DNA from: an uncultured Erysipelotrichaceae bacterium
GTDB lineage: Bacteria > Bacillota_I > Bacilli_A > Erysipelotrichales > Erysipelotrichaceae
Length of the DNA stretch: 13,190 nucleotides
Direction of reading: 5' to 3'
NCBI GenBank assembly: GCA_964457525.1
Contig: CAYWGS010000038.1
Span: forward strand, 1 to 13,190
A program made the position numbers and the translations under genes. The notes below the pieces were generated by a model. That model saw nothing but the letters and a program-made list of their open reading frames with translations, was not told where the DNA came from and ran no database searches. Below, piece by piece: positions 1 through 13,190 of the stretch. Every line of letters starts with the position of its first letter. The first letter of the stretch is position 1.

Positions 1-63
1 GTTTAAGCTTTCTATTCTAATATCACTGTTTTGTGTTTTACTGGGAGATAAGATAATTTTCAT
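1..63 (-). CDS. First 21 codons of a YaaA/UPF0246 (DUF328)-like protein, truncated by the window edge
   Basis: Reverse complement of 1..63 reads ATG AAA ATT ATC TTA TCT CCC AGT AAA ACA CAA..., giving MKIILSPSKTQNSDIRIESLN. The M-x-I-x-x-SP-x-K N-terminus is typical of the YaaA family. Only 21 aa are visible and there is no clear SD. Confidence 0.35.
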   Translation of the reverse strand, partial: MKIILSPSKTQNSDIRIESLN

Positions 64-131
64 AGACACTATTTTAACATATTAAAAATATTGTTAAATC
101 ATTAAGCATATTAACTTTAAAAGAGATATAT

Positions 132-506
132 TTGTGGCATACTAATATCATGAATCAAAGCAAATCTCTTATTAAAATAGTTTATTTAGTCGCAAGTATT
201 TTCTTATTTTACTCTGGTTATACTTACTTTATTGAAAAAGACTATTGGCAATTATTCTTGAACATCGAGTTTCTAATGATCCTATTCTATATGAACTTCA
301 TCTATAAGAAACAAGCGCTAAACCTAACTCGGATGTCGATTCTATTCTTGATAATTCATTTTATCGGTTATGGAATCAATGCCTACTTCTTACACAACTC
401 ATTTAAAATGATCTTAAGTATTCTATTGGTGATTGGAATGTTGGTGTATTTATTATTCAAAAAGAAAAAGAAGTATACAATTCACTTGAACAAAAAGTTT
501 AAGTGA
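132..506 (+). CDS. Hypothetical small integral membrane protein (about 4 TM segments), lysine-rich C-terminus
   Basis: Hydrophobic 124-aa ORF. The TTG at 132 has a weak AAGAG about 7 nt upstream; an alternative ATG at 150 (MNQSK...) has no SD, so the start is uncertain. No recognisable family motif. Followed directly by a terminator. Confidence 0.55.
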   Translation: MWHTNIMNQSKSLIKIVYLVASIFLFYSGYTYFIEKDYWQLFLNIEFLMILFYMNFIYKKQALNLTRMSILFLIIHFIGYGINAYFLHNSFKMILSILLVIGMLVYLLFKKKKKYTIHLNKKFK

Positions 507-513
507 TTTTTTT
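483..513 (+). terminator. Intrinsic terminator of the 132..506 gene
   Basis: CACTTGAAC (483-491), loop AAAAA, GTTTAAGTG (497-505). This is a 9-bp stem with one G-U pair, followed by T7 (507-513). It overlaps the TGA stop. Confidence 0.6.
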
Positions 514-633
514 ATGGGCATTGTGTTTGAAAGAACGATGATAATACACTAAATTATATGTACATCAAATGGACTTCAGGTCAAAGTTGAAGCAAATTCT
601 GATTGATGACAATGGAATTCTGAAAGGAGATTT

Positions 634-2319
634 ATGAAAGAATCTATTACCATTGTTTTATCGGGTGAGGCTGGTCAAGGACTACAGACCGTTGAAGAAT
701 TTTTAGTCGAGTCACTTACCCATGAAACATACGTCTTTTCTTCTAAAGAAGTAATGAGTCGAGTTAGGGGAGGTAATAACTCGGTTGAAATTCGTATATC
801 GAATCACCCCATTCAGGCATTACGCTATACGATCGATTATTTATTTCTCTTTAACAATCATTCATTAGAAAGACTCGTTCCTCGTTTACACGATAAAACA
901 CAAATTATCGGTGAGGCATCTTTTTTAACGGATGAACAAAAGAAACAGTTTAATTTTACTGAAATGAACTTTATTGAAATTGCGAAACAAGCTGGCAATC
1001 GTATGTACTTTAATGTTGCGATGTTTGGCTTTATTTCAGGCTTACTCAATAGTTCTAAATCATTTGCACATCAAACCATTACAAAACGATTTATCCGCAA
1101 AGGTGAAGACGTTGTGAGTGGTAACATTCAAGCATTTGATCTAGGGTATGAACTCGCACAAGGATCCCCAATCAAACTTGATTTCAAACCTAATGATAAC
1201 TTTAAGCCACTCAAAGTTATGACTGGGAATGATGTATTAAGCATTGGAGCCTTAGCCGGTGGTGTAAACTATCTTGCGGCATATCCAATGTCTCCAGGAA
1301 CAACGTTAATGCAACTTCTGGAAGCTAAAACCAATGAATTTGGTGTTCTTGTGGAACAAGCTGAAGATGAAATCGCTGCATTAAACATGGTTATTGGCGC
1401 TTGGTATGCAGGTGCTCGTGCTCTAACCACAACCTCTGGTGGAGGTTTTGCCTTAATGACTGAAGCAGTTAGTTTAGCAGGCATTACAGAAAACCCTGCC
1501 GTTATTCATGTTGCACAAAGACCTGGACCTGCTACAGGACTTCCAACACGTACCGAACAAGCTGATTTAAATCTTGTCTTATATGCTGGTCATGGTGAAT
1601 TCCCACGTATCATCTTCGCGCCAGGTAAACTAGCAACAGGTGTTGAACTCATGGCACGTGCATTCCATTTAGCGGATAAGTATCAAGTTCCTGTATTCAT
1701 GTTAAGTGATCAATATTGGTTAGAATCCTTAGCTCAAACGGATACAATTGTACTACCAAGAGACTATGCACAAAATCATATTGTAGAAACAACTCGTGAC
1801 TATAAACGTTATGCGTTTGACGCTAGTGGAATTTCTCCAAGAGGTATTCCAGGCTTTGGTAAGGGATTTGTCAAAGTTGATAGTGATGAACATGATGAAG
1901 AAGGATTACTCACAGAATCCTTTGATATGCGTGTAAGAATGCATGAGAAACGGTTAAACAAATTCAATCTAATGAAAGAAGATTTATTAGAACCAACGAT
2001 TGAAGGAAACCCAGATAAGAAGAATTTAGTCATTGGATGGGGATCAACCTATGGTGTAATCTCTGAAATTGTCTCTGATAATCCTGAGTTTACACATGTC
2101 CATTTTGAACACATCTATCCACTTCCTGATTCAGTTGAAGACTTATTAAGAAATGCAGATAAGATTATCGTTGTGGAAAATAACGCAACTGGTCAATTCG
2201 CAAATCTATTACAAATGACATATGGAATTAAACTCAATCAACGTATTCTAAAGTACAATGGAGAACCGTTCCATGTGGATGAGCTTGAACAAAAGCTAAA
2301 GGAGAAAGCACATGACTAA
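634..2319 (+). CDS. 2-oxoacid:acceptor (ferredoxin) oxidoreductase, alpha subunit (fused gamma+alpha domains, KorA-type)
   Basis: 561 aa. An N-terminal gamma-type domain (ITIVLSGEAGQGLQTVEEF) is followed by the alpha domain (AAYPMSPGT, TTTSGGGFALM, HVAQRPGPATGLPTRTEQ). SD AAGGAG at 624-629. The 3' end overlaps the beta-subunit start by 8 nt (ATGACTAA). Confidence 0.9.
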   Translation: MKESITIVLSGEAGQGLQTVEEFLVESLTHETYVFSSKEVMSRVRGGNNSVEIRISNHPIQALRYTIDYLFLFNNHSLERLVPRLHDKTQIIGEASFLTDEQKKQFNFTEMNFIEIAKQAGNRMYFNVAMFGFISGLLNSSKSFAHQTITKRFIRKGEDVVSGNIQAFDLGYELAQGSPIKLDFKPNDNFKPLKVMTGNDVLSIGALAGGVNYLAAYPMSPGTTLMQLLEAKTNEFGVLVEQAEDEIAALNMVIGAWYAGARALTTTSGGGFALMTEAVSLAGITENPAVIHVAQRPGPATGLPTRTEQADLNLVLYAGHGEFPRIIFAPGKLATGVELMARAFHLADKYQVPVFMLSDQYWLESLAQTDTIVLPRDYAQNHIVETTRDYKRYAFDASGISPRGIPGFGKGFVKVDSDEHDEEGLLTESFDMRVRMHEKRLNKFNLMKEDLLEPTIEGNPDKKNLVIGWGSTYGVISEIVSDNPEFTHVHFEHIYPLPDSVEDLLRNADKIIVVENNATGQFANLLQMTYGIKLNQRILKYNGEPFHVDELEQKLKEKAHD

Positions 2320-3160
2320 TTTCAACTTTAATCATGATATTGATATGGCATGGTGTCCTGGATGTGGTAACTTCCCAATCCGTGACATGATTATTGAAGC
2401 ACTCAATGAACTTAACCTTGATCCATCCCAAGTTGTCTTCTCATCCGGAATCGGTCAAGCCGCAAAAATGCCACAGTACATTGATTCCAATTACTTCAAT
2501 GGACTTCATGGTCGTGGCTTATCCGTCGCAAGTGCAATTTCAGCAGTCAACCCTGAACTTGTGGTAATTGCGGAAGGTGGTGATGGTGATATGTATGGTG
2601 AAGGTGGTAACCACTTAATTCACAACATTCGTCGTAATCCAAACTTATTACACATTGTCCATGACAACATGGTTTATGGTCTTACTAAAGGGCAAGCAGC
2701 CCCAACATCCCCTGTTGGACTTGTGACGCCAACTCAGATTGATGGTGTTTACAATGAACCCATCAATCCTATGGCTTTAGCATTATCCCTTGGTGCAACT
2801 TTCGTAGCACGTGGTTTTAGTGGTGACAAACAAAAGACAAAAGAATTGATTAAACAAGCTATTCAACACAAAGGCTATGCGATTCTTGATATCTTCCATC
2901 CATGTGTCACCTACAATAAGATCAATACCTTTGCATGGTTCAAACGTAATACTTACTGGTTGGATGAATCATATGATAAGACAAACCTAGAATCTGCTCT
3001 TAAAGTAGCACTTGATATGGATAAATTAGCGTGCGGTATCTTGTACCAGAATACAAATACACCAGATTACCATACACGTAATCCATTCTATAAAGGTGAT
3101 CTTACCCCATTCTATAAAAAGACGAGAGATCTAGATCAAGTTGAAGCATTGCTTCAATAA
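2312..3160 (+). CDS. 2-oxoacid:ferredoxin oxidoreductase, beta (TPP-binding) subunit (KorB-type)
   Basis: 282 aa. Motifs: WCPGCGN (CxxC), GGDGD...NHLIH...YGLTKGQ TPP/Mg motif, and HPCVTYN. Translationally coupled to the alpha subunit. Substrate (2-oxoglutarate, pyruvate or other) cannot be told from sequence alone. Confidence 0.9.
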   Translation: MTNFNFNHDIDMAWCPGCGNFPIRDMIIEALNELNLDPSQVVFSSGIGQAAKMPQYIDSNYFNGLHGRGLSVASAISAVNPELVVIAEGGDGDMYGEGGNHLIHNIRRNPNLLHIVHDNMVYGLTKGQAAPTSPVGLVTPTQIDGVYNEPINPMALALSLGATFVARGFSGDKQKTKELIKQAIQHKGYAILDIFHPCVTYNKINTFAWFKRNTYWLDESYDKTNLESALKVALDMDKLACGILYQNTNTPDYHTRNPFYKGDLTPFYKKTRDLDQVEALLQ

Positions 3161-3200
3161 AAAAATAACACATTAATCATTCTGGTTAATGTGTTTTTCT
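3161..3200. terminator. Bidirectional intrinsic terminator shared by the convergent oxidoreductase operon and kinase gene
   Basis: Perfect 10-bp stem AACACATTAA (3167-3176) / TTAATGTGTT (3186-3195) with a 9-nt loop. It is flanked by an A-run (3159-3165) and a T-run (3194-3198). The hairpin lies inside the last 8 codons of the minus-strand kinase ORF. Confidence 0.65.
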
Positions 3201-3934
3201 TTGAGTGATTGATACAAAGATTCAATTAAATTTAGTGTTCGTGGATTTTGTTCTTCATTTAAACGTAAGAGAGCCATAATAAAGATTGCTTCATCCAACC
3301 ATTCTGTATTAATTGAACAATCTTTCTTAATCATTCGTAAATATTTCTGACCTAATCGAAATACATACTCATTCATGATGATATAGGATCGAGCATAATC
3401 AAAGATGGGATTCCCTTCTTTCGCATTAACCCAATCAATAACCGTAATTTGATCATGATTCATCATAATATTTAAGAAATGTAAATCCAGATGAAGCAAT
3501 GTACTTCCATCCTCAATCAGATTAAGAAGCTGATACGCAAGATTGATATAATCCTTATCAATCATTACCTTTGTTAATTCTTCTTTCGTAATCACCTTAA
3601 ATGAAGGTAAATTTAAATCATGATTACTATGAATCTCTTTCTGTAGTTTAATAAGTATCTCAACAGAATGCTTAAGCTTCTTATCAAACAGTAAATCACC
3701 TAATGTCTTACCTTGAACAAGATCCATTTTTATACAGTTTGTATCAAGAATATCCCAATATTTAATCACAGGTAGATTCGTTCGATTAATCTTTTTTTGA
3801 AGATCATATTCGTATTGTATCCATTCTTTTGGATAATTATCATTAAACACTTTATAGGCAAAAGTTCCATCACTTAATACAAGCGCTTGTTTACCTTTAC
3901 CGATTACTTGATATTTATCATCAAATTTGAACAT
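3173..3934 (-). CDS. Aminoglycoside/choline-kinase-fold phosphotransferase (APH family), substrate unknown
   Basis: 253 aa. Gly-rich loop VIGKGKQALV plus lysine in AYKVF; catalytic loop HLDLHFLN (H-x-D-x4-N); metal-binding VIDW. SD AGAGG lies 6 nt upstream of the ATG. Confidence 0.75.
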   Translation of the reverse strand: MFKFDDKYQVIGKGKQALVLSDGTFAYKVFNDNYPKEWIQYEYDLQKKINRTNLPVIKYWDILDTNCIKMDLVQGKTLGDLLFDKKLKHSVEILIKLQKEIHSNHDLNLPSFKVITKEELTKVMIDKDYINLAYQLLNLIEDGSTLLHLDLHFLNIMMNHDQITVIDWVNAKEGNPIFDYARSYIIMNEYVFRLGQKYLRMIKKDCSINTEWLDEAIFIMALLRLNEEQNPRTLNLIESLYQSLKEKHINQND

Positions 3935-3945
3935 AATTAACCTCT

Positions 3946-3970
3946 AAAAAAACCGTAAAATCTACGGTTT
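3946..3970 (-). terminator. Intrinsic terminator after the YtvI-like gene, abutting the kinase RBS
   Basis: The minus strand reads AAACCGTA-GATTT-TACGGTTT followed by TTTTT, then AGAGG (kinase SD). The hairpin starts at the stop codon of the upstream gene. Confidence 0.55.
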
Positions 3971-5063
3971 AAACTTCTTCACTTGATTCTTTGTATAGTC
4001 TAATCTTTCCACTATCATGCAAACCTTTTAATATTGCTAAGGTAATTGGGAAAGATAATAGTCCAGCCACACCAAATAAACTTGTTCCTAGATACATCGC
4101 AAATAAAGTCACAATTGGATGTAAACCCACTTGATCACCCACAACCTTAGGTTCGATAATATTTCGTATCACAGTCACAACAATATAGATAATCAATAGT
4201 CCAATCCCTAAGTTTGTATTCCCTTCCATAAAGTTAATAATGGTCCAAGGAATCATAACTCCACCGGTACCCATAACAGGAAGAACATCAAAGATTGCGA
4301 TTAAGAATGCAATAATAATTGCTTTATCAATGCCAAGAATACTCAAACCAATCGTTAATTCTAAGAAGGTAATCGACATAATAATAAAATATGACTTAAT
4401 GTACTTCTTGATGGTTGAACCTAGGAATTCTTGAGCATTTAATAATAAAGAACGATGATTTGGCTTTAGTTGATTGAGTAGGAATGTCACGATATTATGA
4501 TAATCTATCGTAAAGAAGAACGAAGAAATAATCGTCAACAATAAGTTAATAAATAAAGAAGGAATACGATTTGCATAGTTTGAAATCCATGCGACTGAGA
4601 AAACAGATACACTTGAGATAATATCTCCAAACGTTTGTAATAAATTCTTATTATACTCAAGAATGGATTCATAAATAACTGGATCAAGTTTTTCAGCCAT
4701 GATTAGGAGATTATTTAATCCATCACTTAACCATGGATATAACGTATTCTCATATAAATCTGGTAATGTTTGGAAAAGTGATTTAACATAATTAAATATT
4801 TCAACACCAAACCACAACAATAACGTAACAAAGATTGTATAGAACATAATAATTGTAAACAAGGACACAAACTTCATTGGGACTTTGCTTACATGATGTA
4901 ATTTCCGAATTAATGGTTTTAGTATATAGGCTATCGCAAATCCAATTAGAAACGGTAGGATGAGTGGAATTGCATAATGTAATACAAAAAAGATGCTTAA
5001 ACCTAAAACAGCGACATATACAATATCAATAATTACTCTCTTCTTTTTCTCTGTTGTCATCAT
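3969..5063 (-). CDS. AI-2E family transporter / YtvI-like sporulation integral membrane protein
   Basis: 364 aa, polytopic (about 8 TM). The N-terminal LILPFLIGFAIAYILKPLI and C-terminal EPKVVGDQVGLHPIVTLFAMYLG segments are typical of the PerM/AI-2E (YtvI) family. SD AGAGG. Confidence 0.8.
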   Translation of the reverse strand: MMTTEKKKRVIIDIVYVAVLGLSIFFVLHYAIPLILPFLIGFAIAYILKPLIRKLHHVSKVPMKFVSLFTIIMFYTIFVTLLLWFGVEIFNYVKSLFQTLPDLYENTLYPWLSDGLNNLLIMAEKLDPVIYESILEYNKNLLQTFGDIISSVSVFSVAWISNYANRIPSLFINLLLTIISSFFFTIDYHNIVTFLLNQLKPNHRSLLLNAQEFLGSTIKKYIKSYFIIMSITFLELTIGLSILGIDKAIIIAFLIAIFDVLPVMGTGGVMIPWTIINFMEGNTNLGIGLLIIYIVVTVIRNIIEPKVVGDQVGLHPIVTLFAMYLGTSLFGVAGLLSFPITLAILKGLHDSGKIRLYKESSEEV

Positions 5064-5118
5064 AAACCTCTATAATAAGAGTTTATCATACTTAAGATTA
5101 ATCTAACATTAATCCCAT

Positions 5119-5152
5119 AAAAAAAGATACTTAGTCAATAAACTAAATATCT
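5119..5152 (-). terminator. Intrinsic terminator of wrbA
   Basis: AGATACTTAGT (5125-5135) / ACTAAATATCT (5142-5152): an 11-bp stem with one mismatch and a 6-nt loop. On the minus strand it is followed by T7 (5119-5125). Confidence 0.5.
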
Positions 5153-5160
5153 TTAAGAGA

Positions 5161-5757
5161 TTATTTTAATTTAGCCGCAACTTCTAATAGACGCTTAACT
5201 TGGTGTTCAACCGCTGGACGAACATTTTCAACCATCTTACCTTCTTGGTTAATTGTTACGCTGGTACCATAAGGGTTACCACCTGCTAAACCAACGGATG
5301 CGTCTGTATAACCAGGTGTTACAACAATTGCTCCCCAGTGGAACATGCTTGTGTATAAGCTTAGAAGTGTTGCTTCTTGACCACCATGTGGGTTTTGTGC
5401 AGAAGTCATAGCACTCACTGCTTTATTAACTGTTTTACCTGTAGCCCAGATACCACCTTGAATATCAATGAATTGTTTAAATTGTGAAGGAACATTCCCA
5501 AAACGAGTTGGTACTGCGAATAATACTGCATCTGCCCAAACGATATCATCAGAGTTCGCTACTGGAATATCTTTGGTTGCTTCTTGGTTTGCCTTCCAAC
5601 CTGGTTGTGAATCAATAACTGCTTGTGGAGCTAATTCTTGAATTTGACGAACACGTACTTCGGCTCCTAATTTTAACGCAGCTTCTTCAGCCCATTTCGC
5701 CATTTGAACGTTTGATCCATATGTACTATAGTAAATAATCGATAATTTTGTAGACAT
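5161..5757 (-). CDS. wrbA: NAD(P)H:quinone oxidoreductase, type IV (WrbA, flavodoxin-like fold)
   Basis: 198 aa. Motifs: IIYYSTYGS, PTRFGN, QGGIWATG, HGGQE and GGNPYG, which line up with E. coli WrbA motifs (LYYSMYGH, PTRFGN, GGLW, GGGQE, GGTPYG). SD AAGGAG (5767-5772, minus strand). Confidence 0.88.
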   Translation of the reverse strand: MSTKLSIIYYSTYGSNVQMAKWAEEAALKLGAEVRVRQIQELAPQAVIDSQPGWKANQEATKDIPVANSDDIVWADAVLFAVPTRFGNVPSQFKQFIDIQGGIWATGKTVNKAVSAMTSAQNPHGGQEATLLSLYTSMFHWGAIVVTPGYTDASVGLAGGNPYGTSVTINQEGKMVENVRPAVEHQVKRLLEVAAKLK

Positions 5758-5773
5758 TAAACTTTTCTCCTTG

Positions 5774-5790
5774 TTACTTTTTGTAAGTAA
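5774..5790 (-). promoter_or_regulatory. Dyad operator box 1 (TTACTT-N5-AAGTAA; contains TACT-N7-AGTA), predicted YodB-type repressor site over the wrbA transcription start
   Basis: Perfect 6-bp inverted arms. A 15-nt core ACTTTTTGTAAGTAA (5776-5790) is repeated exactly at 5835-5849. It lies between the predicted -10 and the SD of wrbA. Confidence 0.5.
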
Positions 5791-5794
5791 TTAG

Positions 5795-5823
5795 AGTATA
5801 TCGAATGTCTATTGTATTATCAA
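5795..5823 (-). promoter_or_regulatory. Predicted sigma-A-type promoter of wrbA
   Basis: The minus strand reads TTGATA (5823-5818), a 17-nt spacer, then TATACT (5800-5795). It is about 25 nt upstream of the SD. Confidence 0.45.
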
Positions 5824-5832
5824 TCAATATGC

Positions 5833-5849
5833 TCACTTTTTGTAAGTAA
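5833..5849 (-). promoter_or_regulatory. Dyad operator box 2 (TCACTT-N5-AAGTAA), upstream of the wrbA -35
   Basis: Exact 15-nt repeat of the box 1 core, 59 bp away from it. One arm mismatch. It sits between the yodB-like terminator and the wrbA -35. Confidence 0.45.
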
Positions 5850-5850
5850 A

Positions 5851-5874
5851 TAAAAACACCTTATTTCTAAGGTG
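5851..5874 (-). terminator. Intrinsic terminator of the YodB-like regulator gene
   Basis: CACCTTA (5857-5863) / TAAGGTG (5868-5874) with a 4-nt loop. On the minus strand it is followed by TTTTTA. It starts 1 nt after the TAG stop. Confidence 0.6.
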
Positions 5875-6165
5875 CTATAAGTTTTTATCTGCAAATGTTT
5901 GTATGGAGTCTAAGGACTGATTTAAATCATGTCCAAGTTGTGTAAGATGATAATGATGATCAATATGTTCAATTAGACCTTCAACTTCCAACTCCTTCAA
6001 TCTTTCTGTTAATACTTTATCACTACAATTGTGTAAACAACTAGCTAGTTCAGTGAAGCGCATTGGTTGATCTTGAAGGCATCTTAAAATAAGCCCATTC
6101 CATCGTTTACCGAGCCATTTAAATACTTTTTCATACTTTGGACAAAGTTTATAGTCTACTTTCAT
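5875..6165 (-). CDS. yodB: HxlR/DUF24-family winged-helix redox-sensing regulator, YodB-like
   Basis: 96 aa. CPKYEKVFKWLGKRWNGLILRCL...MRFTEL...SDKVLTERLKELE closely parallels B. subtilis YodB (CPKMESAFSLLGKRWNGLI...KRFKEI...SQKMLAERLKELE, from memory). The N-terminal Cys8 aligns with the sensing Cys6 of YodB. Confidence 0.85.
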   Translation of the reverse strand: MKVDYKLCPKYEKVFKWLGKRWNGLILRCLQDQPMRFTELASCLHNCSDKVLTERLKELEVEGLIEHIDHHYHLTQLGHDLNQSLDSIQTFADKNL

Positions 6166-6180
6166 ATTGTAAGTATACCA
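6157..6180 (-). promoter_or_regulatory. Possible extended -10 promoter (TGGTATACT) and degenerate operator overlapping the regulator start codon (possible leaderless mRNA and autoregulation)
   Basis: The minus strand reads TGGTATACT-TACAAT-ATG with no SD. TACTTACAA matches the box core, and TACTT/AAGTA arms are present with a 9-nt spacer (TACT-N11-AGTA) instead of the 5-nt spacer (TACT-N7-AGTA) of the wrbA boxes. Confidence 0.3.
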
Positions 6181-6260
6181 TAATTTATTTCAGTTTCATT
6201 CAATATGCATACAAACTGACATTATGGATTGTCTATGTTATTTTATTTAAGAGGTAAATT

Positions 6261-6737
6261 ATGATTGAACAAGCCTTTACATTAATTCGTACAAAGAAAT
6301 CTATTCTTCAAGCATCTCTATTTTTTATTGTATTTTTAATTATCTATACCCTTATTGATCGTAATAATTTAAGTTATACTGAAATGAGAAATCAATATGG
6401 TAATTTCTTAGTTTATACCAACATTTCTCTTAATATCGTTATGGCATTATTGAGTTCTCTTATGTTAATTTTAAGTACTGCAAATGCGACACTTAAAGGC
6501 AAAGAATCGATAGGTTCAAACTTATCCTTTGTGTCTGTTTTATTTGGTATCTTAACCTATGGCTGTACACCGTGTGTAATTGCCTTCTTTGGGAGTATCG
6601 GTATTGCTTTCTCAGTAATTGCCCTACCTTTAGCTGGCTTACCCTATAAATTTATTTCGTTATTGCTTATTGTGATTGGATTAGGTTGGACGTATTATGA
6701 AATTAAATATGGAACGTGTAAGGTAAAACAACAATGA
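6261..6737 (+). CDS. Hypothetical polytopic membrane protein with an intramembrane CxxC (GCTPCV)
   Basis: 158 aa, about 4 TM. The Cys-Thr-Pro-Cys motif lies at the start of a TM helix. SD AAGAGG (6249-6254). Divergent from the yodB-like gene. Overlaps the next gene by 4 nt (ATGA). Confidence 0.65.
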   Translation: MIEQAFTLIRTKKSILQASLFFIVFLIIYTLIDRNNLSYTEMRNQYGNFLVYTNISLNIVMALLSSLMLILSTANATLKGKESIGSNLSFVSVLFGILTYGCTPCVIAFFGSIGIAFSVIALPLAGLPYKFISLLLIVIGLGWTYYEIKYGTCKVKQQ

Positions 6738-7054
6738 AAAAGATCAGAATCATCGCATGGATTTCAACGCTTATTATGTTATTTATGATTGTATTCTCGC
6801 TTGTTACTGGAGACTTCTTTGAACAAGGTTCTATCCTTATGAGTCTTGTATGGGGTCAGATGAGTTTAGTTGATTTATATGTTGGATTTGCATTAGTTTA
6901 TGTTTGGATCTTCTATAAAGAAACAAAATTACTACCAAGAATTATCTGGGCTATTCTATTAATTGTGACTGGAAGTCTCGCAACTGCTCTCTATATTTTA
7001 ATTGAAAGTTATCGAGCTAAAACAATTGAAGATTTACTAATCGAAAAAAAATAG
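6734..7054 (+). CDS. Hypothetical small 3-TM membrane protein (possibly DUF1475-like)
   Basis: 106 aa, translationally coupled to the upstream gene. The WGQMSLVDLYVGFALVYVWIFY segment is the only conserved-looking stretch. The family assignment is a weak recollection only. Confidence 0.6.
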   Translation: MKKIRIIAWISTLIMLFMIVFSLVTGDFFEQGSILMSLVWGQMSLVDLYVGFALVYVWIFYKETKLLPRIIWAILLIVTGSLATALYILIESYRAKTIEDLLIEKK

Positions 7055-7075
7055 GAAATTAACTTTCCTATTTTT
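7044..7075. terminator. Bidirectional intrinsic terminator between the membrane-protein operon and degV
   Basis: ATAGGAAA (7051-7058) / TTTCCTAT (7064-7071) with loop TTAAC. It is flanked by A7 (7044-7050) and T4 (7072-7075). Confidence 0.65.
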
Positions 7076-7076
7076 G

Positions 7077-7904
7077 TTATCCTTGATCCTTTAAAATATA
7101 TTGAATAGCGACACAACCTGGTCCACCTTGAGTAATCATAACCGGTGAAAGTTCTAATATATCCACTTCAATATTTTGAATACGTTCTTTAATTCGCTTA
7201 AACGCTAGTTCCGCAACTTCTAACTTAAACGCATGCGATATATAAATTTTATGTGTATAACTTACACCATTTTCTATCATACGATCAATGATTTGATCAA
7301 TCGCATTCGTCCATGTACGACCAGACCCAAACTTCTCTAAACGTTCACTTCCTTCCACATGCATAACGATTGGTTTTAATTTTAAGAATCCACCTAAAGT
7401 AGCAGCTAAGGTCGTAATACGTCCACCACGTTTTAAATAATCAAAATCAGTTGGCATTAAGAATGATTGACAGGAAGATAAACACTTATTCATTCTTTCA
7501 ACTATTTCTTCAACTGTTTTATCCTTAGATAAAGACGCCGCAAGTTCTACAAGGTATTTTTGAGTCCCTGCCAATGTTTTAGAATTAAATAGTGTAATCC
7601 CTTCGGTATACATTGAGTTTAGAATACCTAACGCTGAATCATAGGTTGCGCTTAATCCCTTTGTCATCGTAATATGCAACGCATTCTTAGTACGTTCATA
7701 TACTTCCATGACATCTCCAATAGCAGGTTGTGAAGAATTAGGAATCGCTTTCTTAACCATTTCAACGAAATCAGCGGATTTTAATTCAAAATAATCTCTA
7801 TAATTCTTACCTAAAATCGCAACTTGTAAAGGTAAAAGTTCAATATCAAGTTCTAAAGCTTGAGCTTGGCTCATGAGAGAGCCTGTGTCTGTGATAATTT
7901 TCAT
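7077..7904 (-). CDS. DegV family fatty-acid-binding protein
   Basis: 275 aa. The N-terminal MKIITDTGSLMS...ELDIELLPLQV, the internal SSQPAIGD, and the length are typical of the DegV/EDD fold. SD AGGAGA. Confidence 0.88.
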   Translation of the reverse strand: MKIITDTGSLMSQAQALELDIELLPLQVAILGKNYRDYFELKSADFVEMVKKAIPNSSQPAIGDVMEVYERTKNALHITMTKGLSATYDSALGILNSMYTEGITLFNSKTLAGTQKYLVELAASLSKDKTVEEIVERMNKCLSSCQSFLMPTDFDYLKRGGRITTLAATLGGFLKLKPIVMHVEGSERLEKFGSGRTWTNAIDQIIDRMIENGVSYTHKIYISHAFKLEVAELAFKRIKERIQNIEVDILELSPVMITQGGPGCVAIQYILKDQG

Positions 7905-7972: not shown

Positions 7973-8602
7973 ATGATAGTTACAATGAAAAGCACACATT
8001 TAGTTGACCTCAAAAAACTTCAATATACAAACCCACAAACTCAAGAAACAATCTTTGGATTTAGTCAAGAATGGTATAAAACAAAATGGCAAAGACTCTC
8101 TGGATGTGGACCTACTTCCGCAAGTAGCCTTATTTACTATGCTTGTTATAATGAGACAGAAATGGATCAAAATAAAGCATTAGAACTTATGGAAGTGGTT
8201 TGGAATTATGTAACTCCAGGTATGGGTGGCGTTTATAAACGTTCCATGTTTACCAATGGTTTAAAACGCTATCTTAATAAACACGACATACAAGCAGAAA
8301 TTGAATCCATAGAAATTACGAAAAATAAAAAGACTCGCATGAGTCTTATCGATACAGTAAACTTTATTGAAAATGGATTAAGTAAAAATGCTCTTGTGGC
8401 ATTTCTCAATCTCGATAATGGAGATGAAAAGAAACTCGATGAATGGCACTGGGTTGTCATAAGTGGTATCGATGTTCATGCACAACACGAGCAAGTATTC
8501 GTCAATATCATCGATGATGGTAAACTCTTTGCGATTGATTTAAACCTATGGCTTAACACAACCAAAAGAGGTGGAGCCTTCGTTTACTTTACTTTGACTT
8601 AA
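7973..8602 (+). CDS. Hypothetical cytoplasmic protein with a papain-like (C39-like) Cys/His signature
   Basis: 209 aa with no signal peptide or TM segment. Q40-x4-C45 in WQRLSGCGPTSA (Cys codon 8105-8107), H159 in EWHWVVISG (8447-8449), and D181/D182 in NIIDDG match the order Gln-Cys-His-Asp/Asn of papain-fold peptidases. Start uncertain (ATG at 7973 or 7985; both have weak SDs). Confidence 0.55.
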   Translation: MIVTMKSTHLVDLKKLQYTNPQTQETIFGFSQEWYKTKWQRLSGCGPTSASSLIYYACYNETEMDQNKALELMEVVWNYVTPGMGGVYKRSMFTNGLKRYLNKHDIQAEIESIEITKNKKTRMSLIDTVNFIENGLSKNALVAFLNLDNGDEKKLDEWHWVVISGIDVHAQHEQVFVNIIDDGKLFAIDLNLWLNTTKRGGAFVYFTLT

Positions 8603-9647
8603 TTTTCTTCATAAATAAATCAGAATCAAAACTATGCAACAAGGCTTCATCCAATGTGATGAGGTCTTTTTGATAATAATCCATTAACATTGAATCCATA
8701 CTAATCATTCCTTCACTGGATGCGATGGTATTATTCAATTGATGTGTCTTCGCTTCACGGATTTGATTACGTACTGCTAGACTATTCGTCATAACTTCAA
8801 AGATAGGGACTAAATCTCCATCTTTCTTACGAATAAGTTGTTGGGACACAACAGCTTCTAGGACCATTGATAATTGAAGTCGAATTTGTGTTTGTTGGGA
8901 TGCTGGAAAAACATCAATCATACGATCAATGGTATTTGCAGCACCTAAAGTATGTAGAGTTGTAAAAACCAAATGACCTGTTTCTGCCGCTGTTATAGCG
9001 AGTGATATGGTTTCTAAATCACGCATTTCACTGATGAACAATACATTTGGAGCTTGACGTAGTGCTGATTTAAGCGCAGCTGCACTTGAATCACAATCAC
9101 TTCCAATTTCTCGTTGGGAGATAATACTCTTATCATGTCGATGTAAGAATTCAATTGGATCTTCAATTGTTACAATATGACCCGAACGATTCTTATTGAT
9201 AAGATCTAAGAGTACAGCTAAAGTAGAGGATTTACCTGCACCTGCGGGGCCACTGATAATAACTAATCCTTTATTTAATTCCGCAAAACGTGTAATTTCT
9301 TTTGGAATGGATAATACTTCAGCTTTCGGTATATCAAACTGAACAATACGAATAACTGCAGCTAAAGAATTACGTTGATGATAAACATTCACTCTTAAAC
9401 GAGCTAAATGAGCAACAGAGAAGGAAAAATCATCATCTCCTTTTTCTTCTAATCGATGCATACTACGATTATTCGCACATCGATAAAGATCATCAACTAA
9501 AATCCGACAATGTTCAGGCATTAATATTTCATCTTCTAATCGAATAACTTTATTCTTAACCTTATAGGCAATTGAAGATCCAGCCACAACAAAGATATCC
9601 GACGCATTCATTTCAACCGCTTTTCTTACGATTTCTTGCACATCCAT
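8589..9647 (-). CDS. pilT: Type IV pilus retraction-type ATPase PilT
   Basis: Motifs and how they match P. aeruginosa PilT (from memory): Walker A GPAGAGKSS; Asp box IVTIEDPIEF; Walker B LFISEMRD; His box TGHLVFTTLHT; DFSFSV...RLRVNVYHQRN; TIDRMIDVFP; and LAVRNQIRE (AIRNLIRE motif). Start moved to the ATG at 9647 (MDVQEIV), which has GGAGG 5 nt upstream. The track start at 9659 lies inside that SD. Confidence 0.88.
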   Translation of the reverse strand: MDVQEIVRKAVEMNASDIFVVAGSSIAYKVKNKVIRLEDEILMPEHCRILVDDLYRCANNRSMHRLEEKGDDDFSFSVAHLARLRVNVYHQRNSLAAVIRIVQFDIPKAEVLSIPKEITRFAELNKGLVIISGPAGAGKSSTLAVLLDLINKNRSGHIVTIEDPIEFLHRHDKSIISQREIGSDCDSSAAALKSALRQAPNVLFISEMRDLETISLAITAAETGHLVFTTLHTLGAANTIDRMIDVFPASQQTQIRLQLSMVLEAVVSQQLIRKKDGDLVPIFEVMTNSLAVRNQIREAKTHQLNNTIASSEGMISMDSMLMDYYQKDLITLDEALLHSFDSDLFMKKIKSK

Positions 9648-9648
9648 A

Positions 9649-10068
9649 CTAACCTCCATATACGGGATCCCCGTCTTGCGAATAATCTTGATTGATACCA
9701 GAGCTTAATCGATATTCGATGATTTCTAATCGAATTCGATCTTCTTTTTTAATGATCGCCTTTATATTTAATCTTAAGTTATTATATTCTTTGCTTATAG
9801 TAATTATTTGATTAAGTTCATCAAACTCTACGTTATCCAAAGAATTATAATCCTTCAAATTTAATCTCTTTTCTAATTCAATTATTTCAATTTCCATATC
9901 CCTTTGTAAGGTATAAGTATCGACAAGGATTTCATTACCTCGTTCAATTGAATGCTTGATATTTAAGGTATTTAAGAGACTTAATGTCGCAAAACTAAAT
10001 ATCAACACAACAATCAATACCGTAAGTATGGTAGGAACACCAAATAGACTAAAGTGATTTCTTTTCAT
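9649..10068 (-). CDS. Small N-terminally anchored protein, ComGG/PilX-like minor pseudopilin candidate
   Basis: 139 aa from the ATG at 10068 (SD GGTGG upstream; the track TTG at 10098 is unlikely). The N-terminus MKRNHFSLFG-VPTILTVLIVVLIFSF resembles ComGG-type N-termini (Gly followed by a hydrophobic helix, no Glu5), followed by a coiled-coil-like segment. Stop is 1 nt before the pilT ATG. Confidence 0.45.
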   Translation of the reverse strand: MKRNHFSLFGVPTILTVLIVVLIFSFATLSLLNTLNIKHSIERGNEILVDTYTLQRDMEIEIIELEKRLNLKDYNSLDNVEFDELNQIITISKEYNNLRLNIKAIIKKEDRIRLEIIEYRLSSGINQDYSQDGDPVYGG

Positions 10069-10070
10069 AC

Positions 10071-10439
10071 TTATTCTACCACCTTTACAATATCCCAAGA
10101 TAAGAGTTCTTCATTTGTATTAGATCTTAAAACAAGATGAATAAGTTGATAATTTTCTTTATTTTCAATCTCTAGTTTTAACTCATACGAGCCTTGTGTT
10201 GTTTGATGATTTCCATCTTGATCAAAATAATAAAATAGTTCTTTAAGTTCATAATTTGGATTTTGAATTGATTCAGATAGTAAAACCATCTTTTCAGACA
10301 TCTTCATAAGTGCTTGGTTTCTTTGGTGCTGAGTCATTGTCCGAATAAATAATGTATTCGCAACACTTAATGAAATAACTAAGATGAATAAAGCGAGGAT
10401 TAACTCATAAACAAACAATCTCTGTGAACGATTTTTCAT
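10071..10439 (-). CDS. Small N-terminally anchored protein, degenerate pseudopilin-like (Glu at +5 retained, Gly at -1 replaced by Arg)
   Basis: 122 aa. MKNRSQR-LFVYELILALFILVISL aligns with the canonical KG-FTLIELLIALxIL. SD GAGGA. 4-nt overlap with the upstream gene. Confidence 0.45.
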   Translation of the reverse strand: MKNRSQRLFVYELILALFILVISLSVANTLFIRTMTQHQRNQALMKMSEKMVLLSESIQNPNYELKELFYYFDQDGNHQTTQGSYELKLEIENKENYQLIHLVLRSNTNEELLSWDIVKVVE

Positions 10440-10882
10440 GGTCTATTCCTCATCGATCGTATTGTAAAAGTTAGTTCTTGTTTATTCCTCAAAGAATCAA
10501 GATATGAAATGTAAACTTGATTTTGATCTTCTTCATATTTCAAATTTGATAGTAAAGCGATTCTTTGTCCTGATGATTCAAGAATGGTATTGACCTCAGA
10601 GACCTGTTCAACCAAGTAACCATCTTCTTCATAGATAAGTGTATAGTAGCCCTCATGTTCAATCATAAGTAGATTATCTTGCACACTAAATCCATTATTC
10701 ATATCAGCTTGATTAAGACGATGATTGAAATAATGAAGTATTGTTCTCTGATTCAATGATTGATTGGATGTCTGATTCATGGATTGATAGAAATCTGCCC
10801 CTAAGTAAAGAGAGAATATCAAAGTGAGCGCAAACATACCTAATAAAATCCATTGAATCAAAGGATTAATCACGCGTTTCAT
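10436..10882 (-). CDS. Small N-terminally anchored protein, minor pseudopilin/ComGF-like candidate
   Basis: 148 aa. MKRVINPLIQWILLGMFALTLIFSLYL anchor followed by a beta-rich region. Strong SD GGAAGGGGG. 4-nt overlaps on both sides. The function call rests on operon position and architecture only. Confidence 0.4.
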   Translation of the reverse strand: MKRVINPLIQWILLGMFALTLIFSLYLGADFYQSMNQTSNQSLNQRTILHYFNHRLNQADMNNGFSVQDNLLMIEHEGYYTLIYEEDGYLVEQVSEVNTILESSGQRIALLSNLKYEEDQNQVYISYLDSLRNKQELTFTIRSMRNRP

Positions 10883-11175
10883 TGAGAATCCCCCTTCCTA
10901 AATACGGTAATATCAGGTCGGATATTGGACGCAAAACTCTTATAACTCACATAATAGAGTCGATTATCCACAATCAATCCATAATTCTCTATTAAATAAT
11001 CTAACTTAGCCGGATAAAAACCCTCTTGTGCATAACACAAGTTCAAGGATCTTTGAATGGCCATTTCAACTTGTTCCATCTGATATTCAATATTGCGTTG
11101 GTTAATCATCTCTGCAATTGGAATACTTGAAACAAGCAGTAATACCGTTAATAGACTAAGTAGCATTCGTTTCAT
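10879..11175 (-). CDS. ComGC/GspG-like major pseudopilin candidate with a non-canonical N-terminus
   Basis: 98 aa. After the anchor MKRMLLSLLTVLLLVSSIPIA comes EMAIQRSLNLCYAQEGFYPAKLDYLIE. This matches the helix plus G-x-Y-P pattern of GspG/ComGC globular domains (compare ALELYRLDNGRYPTTEQGLQAL). It sits immediately after the platform gene, as comGC does. SD AGGA. Confidence 0.45.
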   Translation of the reverse strand: MKRMLLSLLTVLLLVSSIPIAEMINQRNIEYQMEQVEMAIQRSLNLCYAQEGFYPAKLDYLIENYGLIVDNRLYYVSYKSFASNIRPDITVFRKGDSQ

Positions 11176-11176
11176 T

Positions 11177-12202
11177 TTAGAGTCCTAACGTCTGCATTGC
11201 TTGTAAGAGTGGAATAATAAGAGCAAGTAGAACAGATCCAACACCGATTGCTAGGATGAATAGTACAAGTGGCTCAATCCGATTAAATACCTTTTCAATC
11301 CATTTGTCTGATTCTAATTGTGCTTCTTTACTTACTTGTTTTAATGTATTCTCAAGATTACCTGATTTATAAGCGATACGAATCGAGTTTTGAGTAAAGG
11401 ATGGATAGATCTTTGATTTTAGTATTAAATCGATAATATTATCATTACTCTCTAACTTAACCTCTTTCAAGTGACGATATAACTCACGCTTAGGCAAATA
11501 ATCAAATATTAAATCTAACGCAACTTGTTGATTCACACCCGATTCATTCATGATTTCTACTAAATACGTAAAATACGCTAAATCTGCCTTATAAGCGCTC
11601 TTCGGAATAATGTTAAGAATCGAATCGATCACATCATTCTTTTCAGGATGATTCATCTTTTGAGCTGAAGTAAAAATTGCCCATATAACAAATAGAACCA
11701 AAAGAACTAACCCTACTGTTGAAAAGATATTTAAAATAGATAGTAAAATATTAATCCATACTGGATAAGATCCACCGAGATTAATAAAGATTGATTGAAA
11801 GATGGGTAGGATGATTAGACTCAGAACATTCAATATAATGATTAACAAACTAAATAGGATAAATGGCATCGTAAGTAATTCTTTAAGTGCTTCACGAATA
11901 TTCGATTTACGAGAATAGAAAAGAGATAAATGTTTTAAGATCGATTCTTCCTTACCAATTTGAACCGCAATTTCCAAACTCGAGATTAATAATTGATCAA
12001 ACTGATTAACCCCAGCTAATGCATTCATCAAATTATGATCCTTCTGATATAGTGTCAAGATAGAAGCGTAATTAATCTCTGAATCTTGTTCAGACAGTAA
12101 AATTAATCCTTCTTCAACAGGTAAGCCATTCTCATAAATCATGGCAAACTGTGTGCAGAATACCGCATGAAGTGAATCATTTAGTTTCGTATTTTTCTTC
12201 AT
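11177..12202 (-). CDS. Type II secretion system F family platform protein (PilC/ComGB-like)
   Basis: 341 aa with two cytoplasmic repeat domains and three TM segments. The TM1-TM2 loop is FQSIFINLGGSYP (compare F..mF...g..LP). The C-terminal EPLVLFILAIGVGSVLLALIIPLLQ is typical of GspF. SD AAGAGGAAA overlaps the upstream stop. Confidence 0.8.
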   Translation of the reverse strand: MKKNTKLNDSLHAVFCTQFAMIYENGLPVEEGLILLSEQDSEINYASILTLYQKDHNLMNALAGVNQFDQLLISSLEIAVQIGKEESILKHLSLFYSRKSNIREALKELLTMPFILFSLLIIILNVLSLIILPIFQSIFINLGGSYPVWINILLSILNIFSTVGLVLLVLFVIWAIFTSAQKMNHPEKNDVIDSILNIIPKSAYKADLAYFTYLVEIMNESGVNQQVALDLIFDYLPKRELYRHLKEVKLESNDNIIDLILKSKIYPSFTQNSIRIAYKSGNLENTLKQVSKEAQLESDKWIEKVFNRIEPLVLFILAIGVGSVLLALIIPLLQAMQTLGL

Positions 12203-12213
12203 ATCATTTCCTC

Positions 12214-13143
12214 TTAATAGTAATCCTGATTTTGATATTCTCCATCATATGAACCCATGGAATCAAAAGTAGGATCGACTCTTCCCCATTTGTCTGTTTC
12301 AAAATAGACACTTGGATTAATCCAACCTGTATCCTTAATATAAACCTCTACCCAAGCATGATATCCTTGTTTAACATAACCAGTCACAACGCGTGTTGGG
12401 ATATGTTGAACACGTAACATAGCACTCATAAGTGAAGCATAATCGAAACAAATACCTTTTTCTTCTAAATAGGTTTCATCAATAATCGGTAGGATAAACT
12501 TAGTTTGAGCTATTTCAGCTTTATCATAATCGTAATCAATATTTTGGATAATGTATTGATAAATCTCATAAACTCGCTCAATTTCACTATCCGCTTCTTG
12601 AGTTAATTCAAATGATTTCATAATCGCTTGTGTTTCTTTATTATAGTTAACGATTTGATTTGGATATAAATAGGCTGTTGTTTCATCAACCAATTCAATA
12701 TCTATTTTAGTAGAAGCACTAACAACATAAGTGTTCCCATCTTTATTTTTAAGTAGTCGAATTGAGTAGACTCCATCTCCCATTTGAAGCGGAACAATCA
12801 CATACTCATTCGACACAAGTGTATACGTATAAACTGAATCCCCTAATGATACTTGAGCTTTAAGTTCAGAGTTACTATCAGGTGATAGTACACTGATATA
12901 ACCATATTCTGCATTAGAATAATCAATCACAAACCCATTCGATTCATAAACTAACTGTCCTGGTTGAGATGGCCATAATATCTCTTCAAAGGTATATTTC
13001 TTAGAACTTTCTCCCTCTGTAGGGTACTCTTCAAATACATTTACATTGGAGTTTGAACACGACGCAAGAAAAACAATACTTAATAATATCAAGTAAAACA
13101 AACGATTTTTTCGTACATATTTTGTGTTTTTTTGTTGGGTCAT
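12214..13143 (-). CDS. Transglutaminase-like (papain-fold) lipoprotein
   Basis: Start set at the ATG at 13143 (MTQQKNTKYVRKNRLFYLILLSIVFLASC). Lipobox L-A-S-C with Cys codon 13057-13059. Transglutaminase-core triad: GICFDYA (Cys codon 12448-12450), GYHAWVEVY, RVDPT. The track TTG at 13167 has no SD and overlaps a -10-like element. Confidence 0.8.
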   Translation of the reverse strand: MTQQKNTKYVRKNRLFYLILLSIVFLASCSNSNVNVFEEYPTEGESSKKYTFEEILWPSQPGQLVYESNGFVIDYSNAEYGYISVLSPDSNSELKAQVSLGDSVYTYTLVSNEYVIVPLQMGDGVYSIRLLKNKDGNTYVVSASTKIDIELVDETTAYLYPNQIVNYNKETQAIMKSFELTQEADSEIERVYEIYQYIIQNIDYDYDKAEIAQTKFILPIIDETYLEEKGICFDYASLMSAMLRVQHIPTRVVTGYVKQGYHAWVEVYIKDTGWINPSVYFETDKWGRVDPTFDSMGSYDGEYQNQDYY

Positions 13144-13170
13144 ATTCTTTTCTTTATTATAGCACAACCA

Positions 13171-13190
13171 TAAAAAAAGAAGCCCGAAGG
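13171..13190 (-). terminator. Probable intrinsic terminator of an upstream (off-window) minus-strand gene, hairpin cut by the window edge
   Basis: The minus strand reads ...CCTTCGGGCTTC followed by TTTTTTT. This is consistent with GAAGCCC-TTCG-GGGCTTC (UUCG tetraloop), but only 1 nt of the left arm is visible. Confidence 0.4.

Follow-up and report, generated by a model that had tools for sequence, protein, structure and literature searches.

The 13,190-nt stretch examined here (hereafter the window; positions 1 to 13,190 of contig CAYWGS010000038.1, assembly GCA_964457525.1, from an uncultured Erysipelotrichaceae bacterium) carries near its right end a seven-gene operon, a variant of the type IV filament (T4F) superfamily for which we found no description. 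We think it probable that these genes, numbered g1 to g7 in transcription order, encode a self-contained and uncharacterised minimal machine of this superfamily, in which a PilT-family ATPase and an inner-membrane platform would move a set of pilin-like proteins together with a transglutaminase-fold partner. By definition a T4F system has class III pilins, a prepilin peptidase, a platform, and an ATPase for extension, and PilT is the textbook retraction-only motor. The module challenges this standard parts list, as PilT is the only ATPase of the block, the peptidase signature is lost in most subunits, and a transglutaminase-fold enzyme looks to be an obligatory partner. The block is real, widespread, mostly unannotated, and unusual in its architecture.

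A Translationally Coupled Seven-Gene Operon

The genes and the elements bordering them are as follows, with starts chosen by the best Shine-Dalgarno (SD) spacing; in motifs given here and below, a slash marks the presumed processing position.

13171-13190, minus strand: 3' half and T-run of a terminator belonging to an upstream adhesin gene outside the window, recognised by comparison with full-length contigs
13156-13164, minus strand: extended -10 promoter-like box TGcTATAAT (pattern match), 12 nt upstream of the g1 ATG
12214-13143, minus strand: g1, transglutaminase-fold lipoprotein, 309 aa from ATG, lipobox FLAS/C
11177-12202, minus strand: g2, divergent GspF/PilC-type inner-membrane platform, 341 aa
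10879-11175, minus strand: g3, mini pilin-like protein, 98 aa
10436-10882, minus strand: g4, DUF4860 protein with a minor-pseudopilin-like predicted fold, 148 aa
10071-10439, minus strand: g5, pilin-like protein with an xFxxE (Glu5-type) N-terminal motif, 122 aa
9649-10068, minus strand: g6, pilin-like protein with a class III-like leader, without Glu5, 139 aa from ATG
8589-9647, minus strand: g7, PilT-family hexameric ATPase, 352 aa from ATG

An initial annotation, made from the sequence alone, had described seven codirectional minus-strand genes running from 13143 to 8589 in the order lipoprotein, platform, four small N-anchored proteins, and PilT-type ATPase last, and the six-frame list of open reading frames (ORFs) and the sequence bear this out. 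The junctions that it gave (+11, +1, -4, -4, +2, and +1 nt) were identical when recomputed from the coordinates. Each internal gene was also said to have its own SD, and SD-like, purine-rich sequences do lie 5-10 nt upstream of every internal start (g2 GAGGAAA; g3 TAGGA, weak; g4 AAGGGGG; g5 GAGGA; g6 AGGTGG; g7 GGAGG). Together the junctions and SDs support the proposal of a single translationally coupled unit. Independent gene calls on same-species contigs returned identical lengths (309/341/98/148/122/139/352 aa); five such contigs, among them the locus designated L010, were reached through a 100%-identical g4. Exact sequence look-ups with g1 (TTG start) and g2 gave no record.

The suspected terminator-like hairpin at the right edge could be confirmed; its 3' half and T-run are the part inside the window. 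The full hairpin, AGAAGCCTTCGGGCTTCTTTTTTT, directly follows the adhesin stop codon in L010, L001, L005, L007, L015, and L016. After the terminator comes a TGnTATAAT (or TnTATAAT) box, the position of which is kept in all Erysipelotrichaceae lineages, including L017, which has no adhesin. The module thus appears to have its own conserved promoter-like box behind a strong terminator, which supports one unit.

Conservation across the Bacillota

Platform homologues that are 64-99% identical come from Erysipelotrichaceae metagenome-assembled genomes and make up the clade of the present genome, in which the adhesin, g1-g7, and the same downstream genes are kept. The seven-gene order is retained in every relative sampled (L001, L005, L007-L009, and L015-L020), over a range of 85% to 54% ATPase identity. 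The block is intact and its neighbourhoods differ in L015, L017, and L016 (64%, 61%, and 59% ATPase identity, respectively). At ~55% ATPase identity it is found in the Clostridia, namely in Hungatella effluvii (L018), a Marasmitruncus-like member of the Oscillospiraceae (L019), and another spore-former (L020), and cultured Hungatella and Marasmitruncus carry the module.

A metagenome scan with the g3 motif recovered at least 526 relatives, and 80 further loci were scored with hidden Markov models from nine lineages. Counting for each feature only the loci with room to assess it, g2-g6 were all present in 44 of 44 loci, g7 directly followed g6 in 39 of 43 (plus one frameshifted), g1 directly preceded g2 in 34 of 40, and all seven genes were found in 26 of 29. 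The conservation of the seven-gene synteny in relatives, which the initial annotation had set as a check, is therefore evident from both the sampled relatives and the census. The module is inherited as a block in the Bacillota (Erysipelotrichia and Clostridia), including gut and digester Firmicutes, and its recurrence in dozens of unrelated contigs takes the arrangement far beyond chance. The g3 family, used as a marker, comprises 895 clusters at 50% identity (exhaustive search), and Hungatella hathewayi and other common gut Clostridia are among the carriers. In public annotation, g3, g5, and g6 are each a "hypothetical protein" and g4 is "DUF4860"; our literature search returned no paper that mentions DUF4860 or describes a module of PilT with a transglutaminase.

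The ATPase and the Platform

As the initial annotation proposed, the ATPase is PilT-like rather than ComGA- or PilB-like. The product of g7 passes the PilT/PilU model TIGR01420 (388.3 bits vs. a cutoff of 319.1) over its full length, residues 7-343 aligning to model positions 2-338 of 343, and fails the models for ComGA (NF041000, 128 bits vs. 300), PilB (TIGR02538, 106 vs. 676), GspE (TIGR02533, 104 vs. 630), and the TadA family (TIGR03819, 32 vs. 373). It matches Pfam T2SSE (4.8e-40), as a PilT/VirB11-like secretion ATPase of a T4F should, and has the Walker A sequence GPAGAGKS and the PilT-type motif AVRNQIRE. Its best match in the PDB is Aquifex aeolicus PilT (6e-86, full length), whereas PilB proteins match the core only (~1e-21).

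The GspF/PilC-like character of the platform likewise stands: g2 matches Pfam T2SSF in two stretches (59.9 bits), and in the PDB it matches PilC of Myxococcus xanthus (9e-16). Its NCBIfam scores (GspF 89 bits; PilC 87 bits; ComGB, NF041012, 67.6 bits vs. a cutoff of 240; HofC likewise below) are far below all subtype cutoffs, and it is therefore a divergent platform to which no subtype can be assigned. Judged by sequence, the operon encodes the ATPase and the platform of the generic T4F model, which consists of an ATPase, an inner-membrane platform, and a major pilin (Denise et al. 2019, PMC6668835).

Compared with the Clostridia, the proteins of this genome are unevenly conserved, with ~55% identity for the ATPase, 51-57% locally for g3, 34-38% for g1, and ~22% for the platform. 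This is the reverse of the usual pattern for T4F platforms versus accessory proteins.

The initial annotation had called the locus a permuted comG operon, and a rearranged ComG-type competence pseudopilus serving DNA uptake is one alternative to be weighed. The host is monoderm, and the sizes and the layout of a platform plus small proteins seem to echo comGB-GG; the earlier label goes no further than this resemblance in gene size. The ATPase and platform fall below the NCBIfam cutoffs for ComGA and ComGB (rounded, 128 bits on ComGA against 388 on PilT, and 68 on ComGB), g3-g6 match no ComGC-GG model in Pfam or NCBIfam, and no solved ComGC structure appears among their PDB sequence matches, on which grounds we reject membership in ComG. 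The gene set also differs, with four small proteins only, the ATPase last, and a transglutaminase-fold gene present, and no comE, comF, or comC gene was found near the module in the sampled relatives and same-species contigs. A DprA gene adjoins the module in four loci; these appear to be one redundant lineage, and the adjacency was rejected as a clue to competence. A competence pseudopilus is, in our estimate, very unlikely.

Four Small Pilin-Like Proteins

All four small proteins have the topology of prepilins, with a short basic N-terminus followed by ~20 hydrophobic residues. We regard them as pilin-like, g3 and g4 from predicted folds with weak match statistics and g5 and g6 from N-terminal motifs. 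None matched a Pfam pilin model.

The AlphaFold2 model of g3 (pLDDT 96.5) comprises a helix at residues 2-51, a second at 58-65, and two strands forming a beta-hairpin. Its two best Foldseek matches in the PDB are type IV pilins (6xxd_A, TMq 0.55, and 4d40), at a weak E of 1.8, and the best match of its sequence profile is the TcpA pilin, at a marginal E of 0.43. In the latter search the first part of the conserved g3 motif CYAxEGxYP...YLxxNYG, CYAxEGxYP, aligns with TYRGLGNYP of TcpA. No class III feature was found in any of 68 relatives of g3, and its N-terminal anchor is of the uncleaved type.

The g4 protein matches Pfam DUF4860 (PF16152; 31.1 bits vs. a cutoff of 25), and its Hungatella counterpart, encoded at the equivalent place in the operon, reaches 95.6 bits. 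In its AlphaFold2 model (pLDDT 87) a helix at residues 2-62 packs on eight strands, and the best Foldseek match in the PDB is XcpW/GspJ 5bw0_C (probability 0.99, TM 0.47, weak E of 0.06), with GspJ 3ci0_J and XcpW 3nje_B lower in the list. In a staphylococcal N-acetylmuramoyl-L-alanine amidase (PDB 4epc), the repeats that bind the cell wall also gave a two-repeat match to the g4/DUF4860 profile; it is weak (E 0.005) and could be a hint of wall binding or noise.

In g5, the Phe and Glu of xFxxE are invariant in 10 orthologues and stand at the start of the helix. The Hungatella and Marasmitruncus orthologues read HSG/IFMME and KSG/PFLLE, that is, a canonical class III signal; g5 of this genome reads QR/LFVYE, Gly-1 being replaced here and in most lineages. 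The g6 leader, MKRNHFSLFG/VPTIL, is class III-like with Gly-1 present and Glu5 absent, the pattern of GspK/PilX-type subunits, and these N-terminal motifs are what make g6 look GspK-like. Gly10 and the final Gly of g6 are invariant in all lineages examined (10 aligned orthologues and L020), and its C-terminal motif QDYxQDGDPVYGG is conserved in the Erysipelotrichaceae and loosely in two of three Clostridial lineages.

A full class III signature, that is, Gly-1 with Glu5, occurs in none of the four in this lineage, g6 having Gly-1 and g5 having xFxxE. The earlier statement that no canonical pilin is visible thus holds for complete signatures in this lineage and gives way at the two partial signatures and at the two fully canonical Clostridial g5 orthologues. 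A pilin-like fold of the small proteins, set beforehand as a test, was found in both of those modelled (g3 and g4), with the weak E-values given above; each has the "lollipop" outline of pilins, in which a small beta-sheet comes after a long helix. When the profiles of g4, g5, and g6 were compared with one another, the alignments covered the N-terminal helix only and had low probabilities, and PDB profile matches of g6 to CRABP and of g5 to CylK were rejected as noise.

The degeneracy of the class III signatures, the weak fold-search statistics, and the lack of an evident major pilin would also suit a locus with no filament machine at all, in which single-pass proteins form a static complex (a scaffold or regulator for g1 or the adhesin) and PilT and PilC have been co-opted, for example for the extraction of membrane proteins. 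We judge this to be most improbable. The best structural matches are specifically pilins and pseudopilins, xFxxE and Gly-1 sit exactly at the pilin positions, the conserved order and sizes match minor-pilin sets, and the module contains a PilT-PilC pair; to our knowledge, such pairs are known only from T4F machines.

The Transglutaminase-Fold Enzyme

The product of g1 belongs to the transglutaminase-like superfamily, matching Pfam Transglut_core (PF01841) at 84.4 bits (cutoff 23; 8.5e-24) and also DUF553 (1.4e-10). Its closest solved structure is PDB 3isr, a transglutaminase-like putative Cys protease (6.5e-5). The catalytic triad of Cys232, His262, and Asp290 is invariant in eight lineages, as is the presence of an N-terminal beta-rich domain and of a short C-terminal Y-x5-Y tail behind a variable linker. 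We predict a membrane-anchored, extracytoplasmic Cys-His-Asp enzyme.

In one subclade (L040, L046, L047, L054, L058, L084, and L098) g1 has moved to a convergent position downstream of pilT, and in L096 it is divergent and upstream of the module. The gene remains linked to the module even where the operon is rearranged.

A Giant Adhesin behind Tandem c-di-GMP Riboswitches

The gene upstream of g1, read from same-species contig L010 (2529-7688), encodes a 1719-aa cadherin-like adhesin (Cadherin_4/Cadherin_5/Big_9) and ends 51 nt before g1. The protein has a Sec signal, 14 Big_9/Cadherin_4 repeats, and, at the C-terminal end, a membrane helix followed by ~95 aa of conserved cytoplasmic tail. In L001, L005, and L016 the adhesin upstream of the module is shorter (1181-1331 aa), and in L015 it is partial.

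In its leader the adhesin gene carries two tandem cyclic di-GMP (c-di-GMP) riboswitches of class I (L010 2255-2343 and 2400-2488; 62-63 bits vs. a gathering score of 35), ~5.3 kb past the right edge of the window. Such tandem pairs occur in five lineages at 61-64 bits: L010, L001 (5167-5399), L005 (5187-5420), L007 (3948-4185), and L016 (2144-2403). Because the 5' arm of each riboswitch terminator overlaps the 3' strand of the aptamer P2 helix, the sequence suggests that they are ON switches.

Two divergent genes of 174 and 726 aa, with no assigned function, lie beyond the adhesin. The cluster accordingly does not continue upstream into a larger pilus or Com locus, the possibility that the initial annotation had singled out for what lies upstream: there is an adhesin with its own terminator and then the divergent genes. 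The latter were compared with the BTAD and "s167" proteins flanking Clostridial modules and proved unrelated.

In many Clostridial loci (L019 3124-5989; L036, L038, L059, L063, L067, L080, L088, L090, L091, L094, and others) the module is flanked by a ~400-aa BTAD-domain regulator and a conserved ~150-aa cytoplasmic protein that has no Pfam family and carries the motif ATFxVxVxFRQNAxWQG. A sortase gene is directly upstream of g1 in five Clostridial loci, and in L019 a VWA/GBS104-like sortase-pilus adhesin adjoins the module.

A Proposed Minimal Machine

We propose that the g7 PilT hexamer docks on the g2 platform and would use ATP to move the bitopic g3-g6 proteins in and out of the membrane. 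Instead of a long fibre, the four would most likely build a complex of the tip type or a short pseudopilus, with g4 as the GspJ-like subunit, g5 as the carrier of the Glu5 motif, g6 as the GspK-like subunit, and g3 as a mini-pilin without a class III signal. On the outer face of the membrane g1 would work with this complex; we favour a pseudopilus that positions or carries g1, possibly via the conserved g1 C-terminal tail, so that the enzyme would cut or cross-link cell-wall or surface-protein substrates. The local role here is probably in adhesin display or surface attachment, since the operon sits directly behind the riboswitch-controlled giant adhesin.

Such a minimal machine is plausible because PilT is described as promoting extension as well as retraction in one system (PMC9815625), and because T4F tip complexes of the GspI/J/K type are licensed by a C-terminal beta-strand that comes from a non-pilin partner or from the GspK-type subunit itself (PMC13533445). 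The terminal peptide and variable linker of g1 would fit this licensing pattern by analogy.

A more specific and bolder version is a new, stand-alone class of T4F machine in monoderm Bacillota, in which a PilT-family motor would work both ways without an extension ATPase and, in some lineages, most subunits would need no prepilin peptidase. Its tip-complex-like four-pilin stub would carry or position g1 at or through the wall, g1 docking its C-terminal peptide as a beta-strand on the GspK-like subunit, to process or cross-link adhesins or peptidoglycan. We offer this version tentatively and consider it rather unlikely as a whole.

If the proposed machine is confirmed, the module would be a new branch of the T4F superfamily and would lend itself naturally to testing whether PilT can act as a bidirectional or assembly motor and whether a machine can consist of a tip complex only. 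DUF4860 and three "hypothetical" families gain a genomic context, and the link to a giant adhesin under c-di-GMP riboswitch control suggests a route to the study of surface attachment in uncultured Erysipelotrichaceae.

Absent Parts and a Possible Accessory Role

The initial annotation saw no assembly ATPase, prepilin peptidase, or PilM/N/O in the window, and this holds for the window and for ~100 neighbourhoods of the module, which are the scope of the finding. No second T2SSE ATPase was found in any of the 80 census loci or in L001-L020. No ORF with the motif GxGDxKx, which we take to be that of A24 prepilin peptidases, was found in 0.99 Mb covering ~100 loci, and neither PilM/N/O nor Peptidase_A24 was found among the window proteins or the recurrent flanking families. 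In the neighbourhoods of ~100 loci, no PilB, PilD, PilMNO, or canonical major pilin adjoins the module. GspL, GspM, and GspG families had no match among the window proteins in Pfam and NCBIfam, and the operon contains no Flp-like gene and a single platform gene.

The main rival to a self-contained machine takes the module to be an accessory of a conventional type IVa pilus (T4aP) encoded elsewhere: g3-g6 would be minor pilins that prime assembly, g7 the retraction ATPase, and g2 a second platform, with PilB, PilD, and the major pilin at other loci. By sequence g7 is a canonical PilT, normally a retraction motor, and both g6 Gly-1 and the G/xFxxE of some g5 proteins imply a peptidase encoded outside the locus. 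It is also typical of T4aP that the genes are dispersed over the genome, and different systems share prepilin peptidases (Denise et al. 2019, PMC6668835). Against an accessory role, the module has a platform gene of its own that is translationally coupled to the pilin-like genes, and it is always accompanied by the transglutaminase-fold enzyme. We know of no T4aP role for such an enzyme. Furthermore, none of the ~100 loci adjoins the missing T4aP genes. No lineage has a g3 with a class III signal, and in most lineages Gly-1 is missing from g4 and g5, whereas minor pilins entering a PilB-built fibre normally keep the class III signal and Gly-1. On this evidence we consider the accessory role unlikely, while giving it more weight than either a competence pseudopilus or a static complex.

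Several observations weigh against a self-contained machine. In three loci (L034, L035, and L065) no ATPase lies within 6-8 kb, with g1-g6 present (in L065, g2-g6, with g1 downstream). The motor of these loci must be supplied in trans or be absent, and therefore the components can act in trans, which also favours an accessory role. The absence of PilB, PilD, and a major pilin is a property of neighbourhoods, and copies may lie elsewhere in the genome. The constancy of Gly-1 in g6 points to continued use of a prepilin peptidase, the gene of which would then lie elsewhere, and the unit may fall short of full autonomy. The Foldseek matches to pilins have weak statistics (E of 0.06 and 1.8), and g5 and g6 are recognised by motif. 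The lack of a class III signal in g3 everywhere, and of Gly-1 in g4 and g5 in most lineages, is atypical for polymerising subunits. The part given to the g1 enzyme in the machine is purely conjectural, and the adhesin adjoins the module only in the Erysipelotrichaceae, the Clostridia having BTAD regulators, sortases, or housekeeping genes in its place. The neighbours of the module in L034, L035, and L065 include GAPDH/PGK, ABC transporter, and PHP-domain genes.

Other Genes of the Window

Downstream of the operon, a convergent 209-aa ORF (7973-8602, plus strand) shares 14 nt with the 3' end of g7. The ORF contains a GCGPTS motif, has a faint Peptidase_C39_2 match (E 0.04), and is conserved (180-209 aa) in the closest relatives and absent beside more distant modules. 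The remainder of the window (1-7904) has an ordinary gene content that is syntenic in relatives:

634-3160: 2-oxoacid:ferredoxin oxidoreductase pair
3173-3934: APH-like kinase
3969-5063: AI-2E transporter
5161-5757: WrbA-type flavoprotein
5875-6165: HxlR
6261-7054: two small membrane proteins, one of them DUF1475
7077-7904: DegV

Comparison with Known Systems

The view of the initial annotation that the locus fits no standard architecture stands, as the operon, judged by model scores and the neighbourhood censuses, lacks some tested defining features of each of the ComG, T4aP, type II secretion system (T2SS), and Tad systems. With T4aP it shares a genuine ATPase of the PilT family, a platform of the PilC/GspF type, and bitopic subunits that are pilin-like, among which one has a leader with Gly-1 and another a Glu5-type motif. 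It differs in that PilB, PilM/N/O, PilD, and a class III major pilin are not in or near the locus, in that PilT is the sole ATPase and the last gene of a coupled operon, and in that an extracytoplasmic transglutaminase-fold enzyme is integral to the module. Imam et al. (2011) go no further than noting the existence of operons with pilT in Gram-positive bacteria.

With ComG the module shares a monoderm host, a compact operon with a ~340-aa platform and several pilin-like proteins of ~100-150 aa, and the absence of PilMNO. In comG, however, the ATPase gene (comGA) is first and there are five small proteins, whereas the module has its PilT-type ATPase last, four small proteins, no ComGC-like class III major pilin, and an additional transglutaminase-fold gene.

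The tip of T2SS, GspH/I/J/K (XcpU/V/W/X), offers a further parallel, in that four small pilin-like proteins are encoded in a row, the best (weak) structural match of g4 is GspJ/XcpW, the last subunit, g6, is without Glu5 like GspK, and the structure would probably be short rather than a long fibre. Unlike T2SS, the module is without GspE, GspL/M, GspC, GspG, and a secretin, its subunits are much smaller than GspJ and GspK, and most of them are without Gly-1.

The LapA/LapG system of Pseudomonas pairs a c-di-GMP-regulated giant adhesin with a transglutaminase-like Cys protease. The present lineage may be analogous, a giant repeat adhesin apparently under c-di-GMP control adjoining an enzyme of the transglutaminase superfamily. 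Control here would be by riboswitches, not LapD, there is no type I secretion system, the adhesin has a C-terminal membrane anchor, and the link is confined to the Erysipelotrichaceae.

Lastly, the docking of PilY1/PilC proteins into PilK is mediated by a conserved peptide at their C-terminus, which is short and stands behind a variable linker (Ellison et al. 2026, PMC13533445). The g1 protein may be comparable, as a non-pilin extracytoplasmic protein that is encoded with a minor-pilin-like set and has a conserved C-terminal peptide behind a variable linker. It differs from PilY1/PilC in being a small transglutaminase-fold enzyme instead of a beta-propeller adhesin, and its gene precedes the pilin-like genes instead of following them.

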